From the UHGV virus genome UHGV-2124687: DNA of 13,465 nt, one strand, 5' to 3'. Within the stretch, counting starts at the first letter, position 1, and the number at the start of each line of letters is the position of its first letter. This document shows, one piece after another, positions 3,054 through 10,695 of this stretch. The DNA is from a virus. The translations under genes and the position numbers were made by a program. The notes below the pieces were generated by a model. It ran no database searches. It had not been told where the DNA came from and saw nothing but the letters and a program-made list of their open reading frames with translations.

Positions 3054-3461
3054 TTATTTTTTTTCTGTTCGTTTGCGGGCTTTTAGGAGTTCTTCGAAGA
3101 GCTGGTTGAAGTTTTCAACTCGAGCCCGGAGATTTTGGATTTGAGCTTGTTGCTCTGATTCTGGCAAAGAGCGATAGAGCTCAAGCATCTCTTGTTCATC
3201 AACGCTTAAAGTTCTCTGCTCTTCAATTGAGACTGGTTCTGCAGGAGTCTGGTCTTCATCACCAAACAAAATCCAAGTAGGGCTGCACTGGAGCACCTTA
3301 GCAAGTGCATGCAGGTTCTTACCTGAAGGCTCTGTGTTGTCACTTTCCCATAGCGAAATAGTGGCGTGCGATATCCCGAGAGCTTTTCCAAGATCTCGCT
3401 GCGTTAACCCAACATCTTTGCGTCGACGTAATACTCGACGACCTAAAGTTTCACTATTCAT
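3054..3461 (-). CDS. dicA: DicA-like HTH (XRE-family) prophage repressor, 135 aa
   Basis: Translation has an N-terminal HTH (GLTQRDLGKALGISHATISLWE) and the tail ...AKVLQCSPTWILFGDED...LPESEQ...RARVENFNQLFEELLKARKRTEKK, closely matching my recollection of E. coli DicA (same length). Divergent from a Cro-like gene. Confidence 0.9.
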   Translation of the reverse strand: MNSETLGRRVLRRRKDVGLTQRDLGKALGISHATISLWESDNTEPSGKNLHALAKVLQCSPTWILFGDEDQTPAEPVSIEEQRTLSVDEQEMLELYRSLPESEQQAQIQNLRARVENFNQLFEELLKARKRTEKK

Positions 3462-4514: not shown

Positions 4515-5605
4515 GCAGCAAATTACACGGTCTTGTATGGGAAGGGTGCGCTCCTGCTGGATTGGGAATTTCCCGCGTTGCGCTTATGGCCCGCCTGGCT
4601 GATTACAGCAATGCTGACGGCATATCGTGGCCAGCGATTGAGACGCTCAGGATTGAGATCGGCGCTAAAAGCGATACGACAATAAAAACTGCTTTAGCTG
4701 AGCTTGTTAAGGGCGGCTGGATTAAAAAAACAGAACGCAAGCTGGGTGGAAGAAATCTGACAAATGTTTATCAGATTGATATCGCAAAACTCGAAGAAGC
4801 GGCAGCAGAGGGGCGTAAAAAAATACGGGAAGAGAGAGCCAAAAAGAAAGGTTCCCGTTGCCTGCCAGCAGGGCAGGAAGATAAGGCGTCAATTTTTGAC
4901 CCGTCAAATAATGACCCCTTAAAAGAGGATGGTAAGGGGGCAGATTTTGACCCGTCAAAAATTGAGGGGTCAAAAATTGGTGAAAACAGCGATTTAACCC
5001 CCCCAAAAATTGACCCCGATCCGTCATTAAAACCTGATCCGTCATTAAACCCCACACATAACACGCGAGGGGGAGAGGTCGAACCAGTTCATAACAATCC
5101 GGTTCCTGAATATCCCGGACAGCCTGGTATGAATTTTCCCGCCGGAGAGTCATTTGGGAAGGTCCCAATGACCATTGACTGGAAACCGTCGGCTGACTTT
5201 CGCCAGCGCGTTGGATTCTGGGGCATAACGATCCCGGATGGACTGAACCTCAGAGGCGAGCTGAACAGCTTCATTGCCTACTGGCAGCCAGAGAATAAAG
5301 TTTTTTACCAGTCGCAGTGGGAGCAGAAATTTGCCCGCCACCTGCAACAGGCCAAACCCACTAAACCGCGAGGTAACTCACATGCAGGACTGGATCCAAA
5401 CTCCACAGCAAACGCAGCTGTACAGCGAGCACGCGCAGCACACGCTGCACAACTCCGCGCTCGAGGAGAAGGCGTGGAAGTTCTGGGTTCTCATGCTGGA
5501 AATATACTCCAGCCGGTGGGAAACCAAAAACGGATCGGCTCCGTCGGACCTATGGATTGCTCAGATTGGGAATTTGACCAGCGACCGGATGACGAGCGTC
5601 TGTAA
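4511..5605 (+). CDS. Replication initiator (O-like): N-terminal DNA-binding domain, low-complexity linker, DnaT-like C-terminal domain
   Basis: GTG start coupled to the upstream gene; C-terminal block PMTIDWKPSADFRQRVGFWGITIPDGLNLRGELNSFIAYWQPENKVFYQSQWEQKFARHLQQAKP resembles the DnaT C-terminal domain. The last ~74 codons overlap the P-like gene out of frame and are Ala/Arg-rich, so the true 3' end is uncertain. Confidence 0.7.
   Translation: MSSKLHGLVWEGCAPAGLGISRVALMARLADYSNADGISWPAIETLRIEIGAKSDTTIKTALAELVKGGWIKKTERKLGGRNLTNVYQIDIAKLEEAAAEGRKKIREERAKKKGSRCLPAGQEDKASIFDPSNNDPLKEDGKGADFDPSKIEGSKIGENSDLTPPKIDPDPSLKPDPSLNPTHNTRGGEVEPVHNNPVPEYPGQPGMNFPAGESFGKVPMTIDWKPSADFRQRVGFWGITIPDGLNLRGELNSFIAYWQPENKVFYQSQWEQKFARHLQQAKPTKPRGNSHAGLDPNSTANAAVQRARAAHAAQLRARGEGVEVLGSHAGNILQPVGNQKRIGSVGPMDCSDWEFDQRPDDERL
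4893..5049. repeat. Iteron-like repeat cluster inside the initiator gene; candidate replication origin
   Basis: TTTTGACCCGTCAAA at 4894 and 4945, related TTGAGGGGTCAAAA at 4962, TTGACCCC at 5010, and GATCCGTCATTAAA twice (5018, 5035). Falls in the low-complexity linker coding region, as the lambda origin does in O. Confidence 0.55.
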
Positions 5606-6720: not shown

Positions 6721-6926
6721 AACAGTCTGAGTTACCACGCTGTCCGACCTGCGGAAATATGCCCGAATACGCGCTAAAGCCTAACTATATGGGTTGGGTA
6801 TGGGGTGGATTGAAATGCCCGTATGACCATTATCGTGTGAATTTGAATGGTCCAGCCGCTAGCCGCGCACAGGCAGAGAAAAAGCTGGCGCCACAGTGGA
6901 TTGAACTTGTCGAAAAAATAAACTAG
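6717..6926 (+). CDS. Small zinc-ribbon-like protein, possibly Lar-family restriction alleviation, 69 aa
   Basis: ATGA start/stop overlap with the upstream gene; CPTCG motif plus a downstream C and H. Lar assignment is tentative. Confidence 0.5.
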   Translation: MKQSELPRCPTCGNMPEYALKPNYMGWVWGGLKCPYDHYRVNLNGPAASRAQAEKKLAPQWIELVEKIN

Positions 6927-6937
6927 GGAAAAACAGC

Positions 6938-7270
6938 ATGAAACCAACCTACTGGGGACTAGCAGCACAACTCGCTAAGGCTGAGAGCAAGTACAGGGAA
7001 TTGGTAGCGGAGAATGGACATGCGCGTAGACGACATATATTTATCCGTGCTCTGGCGGTTTTGATTCTTGAGCATAGTGGCGGCCGTATAAACTGGCGTG
7101 GTGCGATGGAAGACGCCGGGCACTACCCGGCGCATCAATTGCCATTATTTGCCAGAGATCACTCCCCAGGAATGTTGGCCAACTCCAAAAGCAAATGCCA
7201 AGAAAATAAGTCCAGACCAACGCTCAATCCCTTCCGCCATTATGAGCATCGCTATTCCTATGCCTGCTAA
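6938..7270 (+). CDS. Hypothetical protein; 3' part doubtful
   Basis: ORF-track ORF with a weak RBS; the last ~125 nt overlap the convergent membrane-protein ORF and translate to low-complexity sequence, so it may be shorter or degraded. Confidence 0.3.
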   Translation: MKPTYWGLAAQLAKAESKYRELVAENGHARRRHIFIRALAVLILEHSGGRINWRGAMEDAGHYPAHQLPLFARDHSPGMLANSKSKCQENKSRPTLNPFRHYEHRYSYAC

Positions 7271-7339
7271 TGGAATACCTAATATGATGAAGAGGAGCAC
7301 CGAACAGATAACTTGGGTTGTCGTGGGTTGATGAGACAT
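7145..7339 (-). CDS. Small hydrophobic protein, 64 aa, two predicted transmembrane segments
   Basis: Two hydrophobic stretches (VICSVLLFIILGIPLAGIGIAMLIMA; GLIFLAFAFGVG); AAAGGTG upstream of the ATG; TATAAT (complement of 7380-7385) ~40 nt upstream in an AT-rich block. Confidence 0.45.
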   Translation of the reverse strand: MSHQPTTTQVICSVLLFIILGIPLAGIGIAMLIMAEGIERWSGLIFLAFAFGVGQHSWGVISGK

Positions 7340-7541
7340 GTTAACACCTTTAATGAAGGAAACCGTCTGGGCGCAATTTATTATAGTTTTTATATATTTC
7401 CATTAAGTAACTTTGCTTTTGTTATTTACTGTGCCTTCCATGGGCGCGGAAAGCATATTAAAAAAAGCTACTCATATCTTCAATTCACCAATTTTGGTGG
7501 GGCAATAGTTGCGCTGGAGCGTACAACTTACCATACAAGCG

Positions 7542-7560
7542 NNNNNNNNNNNNNNNNNNN
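7542..7560. other. Run of 19 N (gap or masked bases)
   Basis: Literal n characters in the sequence. Confidence 1.
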
Positions 7561-7569
7561 CGGCAATAC

Positions 7570-7590
7570 AGGCCTCCTTGGAGGCCTTTT
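7570..7590 (+). terminator. Candidate intrinsic terminator
   Basis: GGCCUC / GAGGCC stem followed by UUUU; sits just after the N gap, so its transcript is unknown. Confidence 0.4.
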
Positions 7591-7607
7591 CGATGCTTAG
7601 AGTGTAT

Positions 7608-7722
7608 AGGTGGTGCTGGTTAACTGAAGCAATGGTGAGGGATAATCTGCCGTAGTTGTGTCAGCAGAAACAAATGGCAGCTTAATAAAATATTGCTAAT
7701 TAAACCCGGTACGGCAGGTTTT
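7608..7722 (+). ncRNA. Copy A of a ~100-nt terminator-ending element (candidate sRNA family; terminator stem degenerate in this copy)
   Basis: About 78% identical by eye to 10912-11029; shared blocks GCAATgGTGAGGG, CAGCAGAAA, TAATAAAA, TGCTAATT, AACCCGnTACGGCnGGTTTT. Confidence 0.25.
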
Positions 7723-7752
7723 CTTTTTCACTTCATCAATCTCTGCTACGAT

Positions 7753-7781
7753 TCCCTATCTTTTACTGATGGGGATAGGGA
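7753..7781 (+). promoter_or_regulatory. Hairpin that would sequester the RBS of the small peptide gene
   Basis: 8-bp inverted repeat TCCCTATC / GATAGGGA with a 13-nt loop; the 3' arm is the G-rich SD-like stretch ending 2 nt before the ATG at 7783. Confidence 0.4.
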
Positions 7782-7782
7782 T

Positions 7783-7950
7783 ATGAAGAAAGTTCTTGTT
7801 GCTTTATTGTTGTCACTTTTCTCAGTGACAGCAACGGCAGCAAACAAGCCATGCTCAGGTAAGAAAGGCGGAATATCGCATTGCTCGGGTGAAAAGTTTG
7901 TTTGTAATGATGGCTCTATCAGCAAGTCTAAGAAGGTTTGTCAGAAATAG
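7783..7950 (+). CDS. Small secreted peptide, 55 aa: signal peptide plus ~33-aa Lys-rich mature part with four Cys
   Basis: Internal ATG of ORF 7693..7950; N-terminus MKKVLVALLLSLFSVTATAA looks like a Sec signal peptide (no lipobox); mature part NKPCSGKKGGISHCSGEKFVCNDGSISKSKKVCQK; terminator-like hairpin ~30 nt downstream. Confidence 0.55.
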   Translation: MKKVLVALLLSLFSVTATAANKPCSGKKGGISHCSGEKFVCNDGSISKSKKVCQK

Positions 7951-7982
7951 TTGCCGATAAATGGCACTCACCATCAAAAACA

Positions 7983-8004
7983 AACCCGCTATGGCTGGTT
8001 TTTT
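7983..8004 (+). terminator. Terminator hairpin, third copy of the element's 3' module
   Basis: AACCCGCUAUGGCUGGUUUUUU, one mismatch in the stem; same module as at 7703-7725 and 11007-11029, followed by the same ACTC tail. Confidence 0.4.
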
Positions 8005-8070
8005 ACTCTCTATTGGATACGCTATTTTTTAGGCATTAAGAGCGATTAGTAGGACGCTTCTGGAGAAGGC

Positions 8071-8268
8071 GTGGATTCAACGAACGACGAAGAAAAGCGC
8101 ATAGAATTTGAAAAATTCATCATTGAAAAGTTTGGTGATGCAGTTGATCTCCGCAGGGCGAAAAATGGCGATAACGGATATTTATCATGGGAGGCGGCAG
8201 TAGCATGGACTGTCTGGCGGGAGCGCTCATCTCATCATGAAACAACGTCTACCTCTGGCGAGAACTGA
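8071..8268 (+). CDS. Hypothetical acidic protein, 65 aa, GTG start
   Basis: GGAGAAGG directly upstream of the GTG at 8071; first ORF of three overlapping ORFs in three frames. Confidence 0.4.
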   Translation: MDSTNDEEKRIEFEKFIIEKFGDAVDLRRAKNGDNGYLSWEAAVAWTVWRERSSHHETTSTSGEN

Positions 8269-8461
8269 TTTAGTATGGTGCTGCCCGGAGCTTCCTGTTA
8301 ATCACTATGTACTCCCGTTTAGCCACGTCATTTTAGATTTGGTTTTGGTCCGCTATGAGCGAGGAGCAGAAGTTCGTAATTCCTTTAGACAATCCTCCAG
8401 GGAGGTTATGATAAAATATACAGCCATAAAGCCTATAGGGAGTGGACATGACATTGTTTGA
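8237..8461 (+). CDS. Hypothetical protein, 74 aa (weakly supported)
   Basis: ORF-track ORF overlapping its neighbours by 32 nt and 20 nt; weak RBS. May be a frameshifted remnant. Confidence 0.25.
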   Translation: MKQRLPLARTDLVWCCPELPVNHYVLPFSHVILDLVLVRYERGAEVRNSFRQSSREVMIKYTAIKPIGSGHDIV

Positions 8462-8822
8462 GGAATGTAAGGAACTGCTCAAGACAGATTTTAATGTTGT
8501 GGAAGGGGATGATTTGAGCGCGATAATGGATATTTTTCATCAATATCCATGGCATAGCGGTAATCTCAGATGGTCGGAAATGGACTTCAGCGATTATGAA
8601 CTTAGTCATGATATGTTTAACGGGGGCGGTTTAGGCAATGAAACTGTATTTGTCATAGCGGATGATGCGAATGTACCCGTGTTCAGAACCCATCTACAAC
8701 TCATTGTCGATAATATCTACGATGTCATCGCCATATCACCTAACCTATTTATTTTTAATGATAAAATAATGATTAAACCTTTATTCCCTCATAATTATAT
8801 ACGGTTTGGTCTGCGAAAGTGA
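8442..8822 (+). CDS. Hypothetical protein, 126 aa, strongly AT-rich
   Basis: GGGAG upstream of the ATG; AT-rich codon usage unlike the phage backbone. Immunity-protein-like is only a guess; no family recognised. Confidence 0.45.
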   Translation: MDMTLFEECKELLKTDFNVVEGDDLSAIMDIFHQYPWHSGNLRWSEMDFSDYELSHDMFNGGGLGNETVFVIADDANVPVFRTHLQLIVDNIYDVIAISPNLFIFNDKIMIKPLFPHNYIRFGLRK

Positions 8823-9091
8823 TGAGCAGAAATACTGACCAGCTCCCCGTTGTTCAACTAAGACTTGTTATTGACAACTTCCGCTAATGGCACGGAGCGG
8901 ACAGGCCAAGCGACTTGTCAGGTCGGCTATGAGCGAAAAGCTGACATTAATTAAACCACAGGAAAGCTACCTGTCCAGAGAGAATGGTCAGGGGAGCAAA
9001 CGGTGAGCTCCATTAAGTTGTCGCTGCTTTTCTCGGGCTGTCAGCGCAAGCCGGAGATGGGCAGAAAAAAAGTCGTGTCTGGATCGCTAAA

Positions 9092-9587
9092 TCAAAGTGT
9101 CATCATCATTTCATGCCATGCCATTCCACCGTGGTCCGATTCTGACGGTTTGATGTACTGGTAACCAAAATGGGCGTACAGATCGACGTGGCGGTCTTTG
9201 CACATCAGGTGAATGGTTTTTTTGTTCATTGCTATCATGCGCGTCACAAATTCACGCATCAGTAATGATGAATATCCTTTGCCCTGGTAATCAGGGTGCA
9301 CCACGACAGACATAATCACTGCATTGGGTGCATCCGGATCGTGACCTACCAGTTCTTTGAACTCTTCGTCGGACATCACGACTTCCCACGCACAGCCCGC
9401 ATTAATGAAACCAATAACGTCACCGTTCAACTCCATGCATANNNNNNNNNNNNNNNNNNNNNNNNNNNNNNNNNNNNNNNNNNNNNNNNNNNNNNNNNNN
9501 NNNNNNNNNNNNNNNNNNTGTGATTTCAATATCATAGCAACGATCAACATCGGCATCAGTGGCCTGACGGAATACAGGGGTAGACAT
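9092..9587 (-). CDS. GNAT-family N-acetyltransferase, interrupted by the N run
   Basis: Start reconstructed by hand at 9587 (MSTPVFRQATDADVDRCYDIEIT...), upstream of the track ORF 9092..9556; downstream part has a GNAT-like core (HPDYQGKGYSSLLMREFV). Frame across the gap is undefined. Confidence 0.8.
9442..9518. other. Run of 77 N (gap or masked bases) inside the GNAT gene
   Basis: Literal n characters in the sequence. Confidence 1.
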
Positions 9588-9723
9588 AGCCTTGCCTCTT
9601 CAGATTCATTTGTTTGGAATTATACTATCTTTTTTTTATCCTGCTTTCGCTGCATTTTATTCAACACTAAAATGTAGAATATTCATTTATTGTGTTTTAA
9701 ATAATATCTGAGAAAGAAGAATC

Positions 9724-10695
9724 ATGATGTCAACGTTGCGCAAGATCGATCTGAATTTATTGCTTATATTCGATTCTCTTTATCGGCATGGAAGCGTGAC
9801 GGAGGCCGCCAACGAACTGGCACTAAGCCCATCCGCACTAAGTCATGCGCTCAATCGCTTACGTACATCACTGGACGATCCCTTATTCGTGCGCACTGGT
9901 GGAAGCATGGTGCCCACGTCAAAAGCTGAAAGCATTGCAGCAAGTATTTCTGCCGCTCTAGGAAGTCTCTCGTCCTGCCTGCATGAGCCAGAACACTTTG
10001 AGCCGGAAAAAAGCCGGGAGAGTTTTACCTTTGCTGCTACGGACTACACTGCCGCCGCTATCCTGCCAAGCTTGATCGCGAGGGTTAACAGCCTTGCGCC
10101 GGGCATTACCATTAAGCTTATCTACTCACGCGATTTTAACGCCGACGAAGATTTGCTTTCAGGCAAAGTTGATTTCGCCCTTGGCTTTGAAGAAGAGCAG
10201 AAAGCCCCACGGCGCGGCATAGAGTCGATTACTTGCTTTACTGATGATTACGTGGTTGCAGTGCGACGCGGTCATCCTAATATCCAGGATTCCCTTACCC
10301 AAGAGCGTTATCTGAGCGCCGGACACGTAGTGGTGCGTCCATGGTTGGAAAGACGGGGGGGGATCGACCGTTATCTGGAAAGTCAGCAGGTACGTCGCCG
10401 GGTCGTTGTTGAATTGCCAAGCCTGATGATTGCCCCAATTATCGTTTCGAATACTGATCTGGTTATCACGCTTCCCAAGCGGGGGATCTCATCAGTTTTT
10501 GATATGAAAAATCTGGTGGTGTTTGCTCCCCCGTTCCCGACACCACAGTACATTTTGAAAGCCTATTACAGCCCGGCACTCGGTAACTCGCCAGGGCATA
10601 TATGGATGAGGGGGCAAATTTTGCAGGTTTGTGATCCGCTAAATCCGGCGATGCCAGTAATTGCTGTCGATACAAATTCTGGTACAGAAAGGTAA
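9724..10695 (+). CDS. LysR-family transcriptional regulator, 323 aa
   Basis: N-terminal LysR-type HTH (KIDLNLLLIFDSLYRHGSVTEAANELALSPSALSHALNRLR) and typical length; divergent from the GNAT gene across a 136-bp AT-rich region. Confidence 0.9.
   Translation: MMSTLRKIDLNLLLIFDSLYRHGSVTEAANELALSPSALSHALNRLRTSLDDPLFVRTGGSMVPTSKAESIAASISAALGSLSSCLHEPEHFEPEKSRESFTFAATDYTAAAILPSLIARVNSLAPGITIKLIYSRDFNADEDLLSGKVDFALGFEEEQKAPRRGIESITCFTDDYVVAVRRGHPNIQDSLTQERYLSAGHVVVRPWLERRGGIDRYLESQQVRRRVVVELPSLMIAPIIVSNTDLVITLPKRGISSVFDMKNLVVFAPPFPTPQYILKAYYSPALGNSPGHIWMRGQILQVCDPLNPAMPVIAVDTNSGTER

Follow-up and report, generated by a model that had tools for sequence, protein, structure and literature searches.

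A YdcA-family gene for a predicted exported mini-protein as accessory cargo of a Citrobacter freundii lambdoid prophage

The window analyzed here, a stretch of 13,465 nucleotides from the virus genome UHGV-2124687, is a Citrobacter freundii lambdoid prophage, and the ydcA cassette it carries is accessory cargo of the moron type. Gene calls and Pfam labels of the window were taken from matching loci (L104-L109), and several of the functional names are our own reading. To the left of ydcA are located genes for a cI-like repressor (minus strand, 3054-3461), Cro, a YdaT/CII-like protein and O/P-like replication proteins. To its right follow a 65-aa ORF, an orphan CdiI_ImmP immunity gene, a cargo pair encoding a GNAT acetyltransferase and a LysR regulator, the genes for DinI, Rem, DUF968 and RusA, and finally a 199-aa ORF without Pfam match, which we took as a Q-like antiterminator gene. 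In this lambdoid phage, ydcA was thus captured in the early region, with the replication genes on one side and the presumed Q antiterminator gene on the other. The coordinates of the cassette features are listed in Table 1.

The cargo downstream of ydcA varies among the sister prophages (L105-L108). The GNAT gene (minus strand) and the LysR gene, located between the CdiI gene and dinI (9092-10691), are present in L104 and L109 and missing from L106 and L108; in L105, two IS copies are also inserted at this site. In L107, genes for a cytochrome b561, a CDF transporter, an integrase and a GAPS4-type PDDEXK protein are found instead, and the position of the cytochrome b561 gene beside ydcA echoes the order cybB-rydC-ydcA of E. 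coli K-12. The immunity gene (8448-8822; PF24172, CdiI_ImmP) is an orphan CDI-immunity gene carried as prophage cargo, and the segment covering it (8352-8850) has 99.2% identity to part of an E. coli plasmid of 41.8 kb (NZ_CP032203), where the product is labeled 'CDI toxin immunity protein'. Three iteron-like direct and inverted repeats of about 50 nt (TTTTGACCCGTCAAA core) lie inside the O-like replication gene (4875-5013) and are probably the phage origin.

Table 1. Positions of the features of the ydcA cassette in the window.
Feature	Position	Strand	Description
Upstream terminator-like repeat (T1)	7702..7728	+	AAACCCGGTACGGCAGGTTTT plus T-rich run; decayed; left cassette boundary
Putative cassette promoter	7725..7752	+	-35-like TTTTCA at 7725-7730, 16-nt spacer, extended -10-like TGCTACGAT at 7744-7752
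Hairpin of the original prediction	7753..7781	+	5' arm 7753-7760 TCCCTATC, 3' arm 7774-7781 GATAGGGA; alternative register 7768-7775
Purine tract with Shine-Dalgarno-like bases	7771..7781	+	GGGGATAGGGA; (nearly) invariant in all close copies
ydcA-family CDS	7783..7950	+	55 codons plus TAG; ATG at 7783, TAG at 7948-7950
Predicted Sec signal peptide	7783..7839	+	Residues 1-19, cleavage after A-T-A; from composition and family alignment
Predicted mature 36-aa domain	7840..7947	+	Motif PCSGKKGG-x3-C-x6-C-xDG-x8-C; from invariant columns, AF2 model and homology to Dis2 lobe 1
Downstream terminator-like repeat (T2)	7982..8004	+	AAACCCGCTATGGCTGG plus T6; right cassette boundary; common to the 'empty site' prophage

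The ORF at 7783-7950 codes for a 55-aa product, MKKVLVALLLSLFSVTATAANKPCSGKKGGISHCSGEKFVCNDGSISKSKKVCQK. Judged by eye and from family alignments, its N-terminus is composed of an n-region with two lysines, a hydrophobic core and an A-T-A|A cleavage site, in agreement with the Sec-type signal peptide of the original prediction. The predicted mature part is basic and contains four cysteines, as had been proposed, but is 36 rather than about 33 residues long. It includes eight lysines, one glutamate, one aspartate and one histidine (net charge about +6), and its four cysteines are invariant. Compared with relatives, the mature part showed pN values of 0.012-0.044 and pS values of 0.71-0.85, with synonymous divergence saturated, whereas the signal peptide evolved fast relative to the mature part (pN 0.20-0.26). 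The mature part is under strong purifying selection and the signal peptide drifts. The family alignment likewise revealed a variable leader and near-invariance from about residue 21 onward, and the mature sequence is almost unchanged across alpha-, beta- and gamma-proteobacteria. A low pN in the mature part combined with a drifting leader is the pattern expected of a translated product that is under constraint and whose leader is cleaved off, which indicates that the ORF is a real gene. Leader, composition and family alignment together back the predicted exported, basic four-cysteine mini-protein, in which the signal peptide would be cleaved off and two disulfides would form.

This product is a YdcA-family exported mini-protein and as such is already catalogued, in a family without known function. 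An identical 55-aa protein of C. freundii is named "YdcA family protein" in NCBI and UniRef; the exact sequence is present on at least 36 contigs, and PF27300 (YdcA) is recorded on it. The product matched NCBIfam NF007463 (PRK10040.1-2) with an E-value of 1.8e-26 and 91.7 bits, just below the equivalog cut-off of 93, and phrog_6000 with an E-value of 4.7e-26. A collection of 5.8 billion proteins contained 115 matching clusters, nearly all with PF27300 as precomputed domain. All columns invariant in the family are found in the window protein, which consists of the signal peptide and a domain of about 35 residues with PCSGKKGG and the spacing C-x9-C-x6-C-x11-C. A Pfam scan of the product with a local Pfam copy gave no match, and PF27300 was seen in precomputed annotations alone; we assume that this entry is newer than the copy scanned. 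Two other labels were rejected. 'Serine proteinase-inhibitor complex', attached to one homolog from a MAG, was accompanied in PDB searches by weak granzyme and hepsin matches only (E > 0.3), and 'ydcA' of the gonococcal island is merely a positional name. In E. coli, ydcA encodes a 57-aa protein of unknown function that is periplasmic by prediction (PMC11340327). Its deletion renders E. coli W sensitive to 300 mM 3-hydroxypropionate, and YdcI-dependent induction at pH 5 is cited in the same study (PMC7642389). These data loosely point to envelope or acid stress.

The cassette is flanked by a 21-nt direct repeat (D5), the two copies of which (7702-7722 and 7982-8002) are 86% identical. The terminator-like structures formed there are both weak in the window, T1 folding with -3.6 kcal/mol (z -0.14) and T2 with -5.7 kcal/mol, and neither was called in a scan of the window for intrinsic terminators. 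In relatives, both repeat copies are clean intrinsic terminators of the form AAACCCGC-TACG-GCGGGTTTTT, with T1 reading AACCCGCTACGGCGGGTTTTCTTTTT. The gene had been described as lying between a copy of an 'element A' and a terminator copy; the flanking repeat proved to be real, but a search of the window for a larger repeated element found none.

Comparison with E. coli prophages revealed how the cassette is delimited. E. coli prophages such as that of ES8 match the window in 7703-8011 only, with 90% identity; the cassette again belongs to a lambdoid prophage there, with an ea22-like gene and dinI as its neighbors, and homology with ES8 starts at T1. In the prophage of E. coli NCTC11023, the downstream 65-aa gene is preceded by a single terminator copy and ydcA is absent; here homology to the window begins exactly at the T2 terminator. 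The single terminator copy without ydcA identifies NCTC11023 as the empty site, so that ydcA behaves as a moron cassette between duplicated terminators. Presence and absence at the same site in related phages, as expected of a moron, is thereby documented by ES8, which shares the cassette only, and by NCTC11023. Searches of GenBank phages with 6900-8450 (megablast) and of E. coli genomes with the upstream flank of the cassette gave no match. We regard the identity of the gene and the moron status of the cassette as established with very high confidence.

Two further structures are located upstream. A clean intrinsic terminator at 7563-7592 (AGGCCTCCTTGGAGGCCTTTT, -12.4 kcal/mol) lies just past a masked N run (7523-7540) and about 110 nt upstream of the ydcA cassette. 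A 95-nt stem-loop at 7636-7730 (arms 7641-7654/7710-7723; -24.5 kcal/mol, z -2.25) ends in the T-run of the upstream terminator. It is kept in some sister prophages (L002, L008, L009) and replaced in the E. coli type, and it had no match in Rfam; it may represent a 3' end or a small RNA.

A putative promoter of the cassette is located at 7725-7752. The TGnTA..AT skeleton of its extended -10-like element recurs in four 5' regions that diverge in other respects (TGCTACGAT, TGATAGGAT, TGTTAGGAT and TGCTACTCT). A generic promoter scan did not call it (8/12 matches), and in more distant relatives a clearer promoter is visible by eye after a terminator. With the -10 region at 7747-7752, transcription would start near 7758-7761, inside the 5' arm of the hairpin that the original prediction had placed over the ribosome-binding site. 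This 8-bp stem is present as proposed: T7753-C7760 pairs with G7774-A7781, and the Shine-Dalgarno sequence lies within the 3' arm. Its occlusion was also confirmed computationally, the unpaired probability of 0.01 being the lowest of 22 sites in the window; these sites form a rough background, as their starts were transferred from L104 with a fixed offset and several are off by a few bases. ViennaRNA preferred a shifted register, in which 7753-7760 pairs with 7768-7775, together with an outer stem between 7736-7745 and the Shine-Dalgarno sequence and AUG. The MFE of the hairpin region (66 nt) was -18.2 kcal/mol with z = -2.3 (6 of 200 shuffles were as good), and stabilities ranged from -18 to -22 kcal/mol.

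The further claim, that the hairpin serves post-transcriptional control, was not upheld by the comparison of 50 homologous cassette copies. The strong stem is kept in 10 of them, and one has a shifted stem after a 6-nt deletion. The commonest haplotype (TCACTTAC/GGGAATAGGG; 18 copies) breaks four of the eight pairs, 14 copies have a different upstream sequence with weak pairing, and 7 have an unrelated 5' region. When the seven distinct versions of the homologous 5' region were compared, none of the pairs had changed on both sides, and shuffles equaled the observed values. Rfam gave no match, neither for the whole window at the gathering threshold nor for 7280-8120 with the cut-off relaxed to E ≤ 1. 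The hairpin thus appears to be a recent haplotype-specific (lineage-specific) feature outside the conserved design, and it is quite probably not a conserved regulator. Its 5' arm starts one base past the conserved TGnTAnnAT motif (7744-7752), so that the cassette's own transcript may lack the hairpin; if the cassette promoter is used, the structure would be largely outside the mRNA. It could act on transcripts reading through from upstream. In the haplotype of the window, it might then be a working translational brake on read-through transcripts of the early region that sequesters the Shine-Dalgarno sequence and the start codon, with the consequence that YdcA would be made only from the short transcript of the cassette or when the stem melts. 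Several observations are in line with such a brake: by the rough control above, the site is the most occluded one of the window; the MFE including the outer stem reaches -19 to -26 kcal/mol in the hairpin haplotypes; one A-to-G change in an arm retains pairing as G.U; and C/U-rich stretches of the other 5' classes can pair with the GGGGATAGGG tract (unpaired probability of the Shine-Dalgarno sequence 0.11-0.45). Such a long purine tract, however, finds partners by chance, and the modest z-value, the four broken pairs of the commonest haplotype and the lack of any two-sided change, with shuffles scoring equally well, make a brake improbable.

Among species-representative genomes of alpha-, beta- and gamma-proteobacteria, relatives of the gene occurred at 443 loci, and 522 IMG/VR viral contigs also contained relatives. 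A set of 1.84 billion representatives yielded no more than 385 clusters at the 50% identity level, so that the family is compact. In HP1/HP2-like prophages of the P2 family, the ydcA homolog overlaps the stop codon of cI inside the cI-to-int operon, and its expression in lysogens is therefore expected; in the GenBank records of HP2 and S2 it is present and unannotated. In Moraxella Mcat and Acinetobacter phages, the homolog is located among tail genes. Together with the lambdoid site, temperate phages captured ydcA at three or more independent genome positions, in phages unrelated to one another. Chromosomal, non-phage copies are found in E. coli K-12 beside cybB/rydC, in Moraxella between hom and cysS, and in Pseudomonas, where a gene for an OmpR-type response regulator adjoins the ydcA homolog. 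A Pfam survey of 135 immediate neighbor ORFs in non-enterobacterial genomes revealed no general partner gene; nothing recurred except OmpR-type regulators in Pseudomonas, with 13 Response_reg matches in total, and scattered phage genes. At the Moraxella chromosomal loci (L118-L121), the ydcA homolog is located two genes downstream of a gene for a DsbC-type disulfide isomerase, which may be a coincidence, yet is relevant to a four-cysteine periplasmic protein.

A search of the PDB with the family profile matched a single protein, chain AN of 7MUC/7MUD, which is Dis2 (Lpg0823) of the Legionella Dot/Icm system. Both lobes of Dis2 were matched by hmmsearch (E-values 5.3e-6 and 3.5e-5), and hhalign of the family profile with Dis2 lobe 1 gave a probability of 94% and an E-value of 1.4e-7. 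The AF2 model of the mature part has a beta-hairpin core and a mean pLDDT of 83.8 (77-89 per 10-residue block). For both AF2 models, the top Foldseek matches were the same two Dis2 chains, with E-values of 0.6-2.7 that are non-significant alone. No candidates emerged from a word-indexed search that used 44 residues of Dis2 as query. The profile comparisons indicate that the YdcA domain is homologous to the lobes of Dis2. Dis2 itself is characterized by two lobes, five disulfides and a genome with a Dot/Icm system; the window protein has a single lobe and four cysteines, and no T4SS gene was present among the called genes of the Citrobacter prophage. It is consequently a homolog of Dis2, not an ortholog. 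Dis2 of Legionella is a structural subunit with a peripheral position close to the outer membrane (PMC8486379); it is dispensable, and only Legionellales have its partners (PMC12716638).

The longer members of the family comprise tandem repeats of the YdcA domain and proteins in which an N-terminal YdcA domain is fused to one of three unrelated nuclease folds, SNase, Endonuclease_NS or PLD-like; in one further member it is fused to a C-terminal piece of VasL. The PCSGKKGG...CNDGS motif is intact in the fusions. In a search with the fusion protein of Methylovulum, the best 120 clusters (62-98% identity) all carried PF27300 together with PF01223. The genes in L074 and L029 are continuous ORFs encoding a signal peptide, the YdcA domain, a linker and the nuclease. 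They belong to a large conserved set of secreted Methylococcales nucleases with this order and an Endonuclease_NS domain (L074, 5938-6927; L029, 1723-2655; P0285-P0404), which are labeled in their sources only 'endonuclease G' or 'DNA/RNA non-specific endonuclease'. At four other loci, in Neisseria zalophi, Xanthobacter, Reyranella and a Hyphomicrobiales MAG (L056, L046, L080 and L122), a separate ydcA gene lies directly beside an SNase gene on the same strand. The simplest role for an extracytoplasmic module that three nuclease families have in common is either to bind nucleic acid, as an arm of the enzyme, or to tether it to the envelope, and the Lys- and Gly-rich GKKGG loop would fit the binding of phosphate-rich polyanions.

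The reading that best accounts for the results overall, to which we give about an even chance, is that of a Sec-exported moron YdcA domain acting as a periplasmic polyanion binder. In the cassette, a decayed terminator would be followed by a weak extended -10 promoter, the ydcA-family gene and a second decayed terminator. The product would be exported by Sec and its signal peptide removed, and the Lys-rich domain of 36 residues would fold in the periplasm around two disulfides as a single copy of the domain occurring twice in Legionella Dis2. Within the cell envelope, it would most likely bind a polyanion rich in phosphate, DNA being the leading candidate. As secreted non-specific nucleases carry this domain, with its motif intact, as their N-terminal accessory module, the stand-alone copy would act in the periplasm of the lysogen, for example on DNA entering the cell, and would have no role as diffusible toxin or signal. 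Signal cleavage, the disulfides, the promoter with its start site, the ligand and the benefit to the phage are the conjectural parts of this scheme, whereas the gene's identity, selection and distribution, the cassette boundaries, the Dis2 homology, the fusions to and adjacency with nucleases and the non-conservation of the hairpin are shown.

The original prediction had instead compared the product with bacteriocin-like or signaling peptides, that is, with a secreted disulfide-bonded peptide acting on other cells. Small size, positive charge, richness in disulfides and predicted export would suit such a peptide, and the orphan CdiI_ImmP gene 500 bp downstream shows that the region carries competition-related cargo. 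The CdiI gene, however, is a separate cargo item: neither variant L107 nor the ES8 prophage of E. coli has it next to ydcA. A Sec leader reaches the periplasm only, a double-glycine leader is missing, and no transporter, processing or immunity genes were found to travel with ydcA across the contexts examined. PADLOC, applied to YdcA and its neighbors, gave no hit except a weak AbiEi-like match on the CdiI gene. Extreme purifying selection is not expected of a toxin for strain-level competition, and the mature sequence is near-invariant across classes; moreover, E. coli, Moraxella and Pseudomonas have chromosomal single-copy, housekeeping-like members, and the homologs are a structural subunit (Dis2) or modules of enzymes. 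A bacteriocin or signal is therefore very unlikely. The same holds for a function other than substrate binding, in which YdcA would inhibit or activate periplasmic or secreted nucleases or serve them as a chaperone. The separate ydcA genes adjoining SNase genes in Neisseria, Xanthobacter, Reyranella and the Hyphomicrobiales MAG would agree with it, but inhibitors are not usually arranged as stable covalent fusions to their enzyme, the fusion via a flexible linker is stable in at least 120 clusters, and most family members have no nuclease nearby, which leaves this function with hardly any probability.

The choice lies mainly between binding of DNA or another polyanion and attachment to the envelope. 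The domain fusions and the charge form the basis of the former, which we favor tentatively, although at rather less than even probability. An anchoring role would account for the same fusions, and phage DNA normally passes the periplasm within a conduit, which makes the gain to a prophage from a periplasmic DNA binder unclear. In addition, lobe 1 of Dis2 is without net charge in its readable stretch, and the site of Dis2 near the outer membrane (PMC8486379) fits contact with protein or membrane better than DNA binding. As an anchoring or complex-binding module, the domain would attach to LPS or phospholipid head groups, to a protein complex of the outer membrane or to the inner surface of that membrane. 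Fused copies would tether the nucleases to the envelope; a stand-alone copy would alter or obstruct an envelope machine, for instance a secretin, a T4SS or a phage receptor, leading to stress tolerance or exclusion. The homology to Dis2 and the place of Dis2 in a protein assembly near the outer membrane (PMC8486379), the 3-hydroxypropionate sensitivity of the ydcA deletion and the cited induction at pH 5 (PMC7642389), the OmpR-type regulator genes adjoining the Pseudomonas copies and a strongly basic surface, which would suit anionic lipids, all speak for such a module. On the other hand, Dis2 is dispensable and its partners are Legionellales-specific (PMC12716638), yet YdcA is near-invariant across three proteobacterial classes. 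A free anchor without cargo also has no obvious activity, and no conserved envelope partner gene was found in the neighborhoods examined. We consider anchoring rather unlikely and prefer polyanion binding.

If polyanion binding is taken further, the YdcA mini-proteins might constitute a widespread, unrecognized class of periplasmic DNA- or polyanion-binding proteins, which was duplicated to give Dis2 and was fused to secreted nucleases as a substrate-binding or tethering arm. Stand-alone copies captured by phages might hinder the entry of DNA by transformation, conjugation or superinfection and thereby protect the prophage. In this general form the proposal is speculative and would hold with low probability. 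The window gene as such is a catalogued family member of unknown function in an ordinary moron setting. It deserves modest attention since YdcA is a 'y-gene' of E. coli K-12 still without function, since the mature peptide has changed unusually little within three classes of proteobacteria and since temperate phages acquired the gene at three or more positions. The papers on Dis2 and ydcA consulted here mention neither the homology to the Dis2 lobes nor the stable fusion to secreted nucleases. These two links lead to a concrete and cheaply testable hypothesis, namely periplasmic binding of polyanions or DNA, and they undercut the description of Dis2 as species-specific.

Among known systems, the closest counterpart is YdcA of E. 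coli K-12 (b1419), which shares with the window protein the length class, the Sec signal, the PCSGxKGGI motif and four cysteines in register. The K-12 gene differs in being chromosomal, beside cybB and rydC, and in having another 5' region with a strong GGAGG Shine-Dalgarno sequence, whereas the window copy is prophage cargo. Dis2 of L. pneumophila, a subunit of the outer-membrane cap, likewise has a signal peptide, is stabilized by disulfides and contains the C-x9-C...VCN(D/N)G core, but carries the domain twice, in two lobes with five disulfides, while the window protein has one copy. The YdcA-Endonuclease_NS nucleases of the Methylococcales (e.g., that of Methylovulum psychrotolerans, L074) have the same N-terminal module after the signal peptide, with the motif intact; in these as in the rarer YdcA-SNase and YdcA-PLD fusions, a Ser/Gly/Pro-rich linker leads to a catalytic nuclease, whereas the module of the window stands alone. 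With respect to the genetic setting, the cassette resembles phage morons and lysogenic-conversion genes such as bor and lom of lambda and the morons of HK97, the moron concept reportedly going back to Juhala and Hendrix. Like these, it is a small accessory gene for a predicted envelope protein that has putative transcription signals of its own and is present or absent between related phages; in HP1-like phages, the ydcA homolog would be co-transcribed with cI. Unlike the classic morons, the window copy has a putative promoter and terminators that are weak or decayed.
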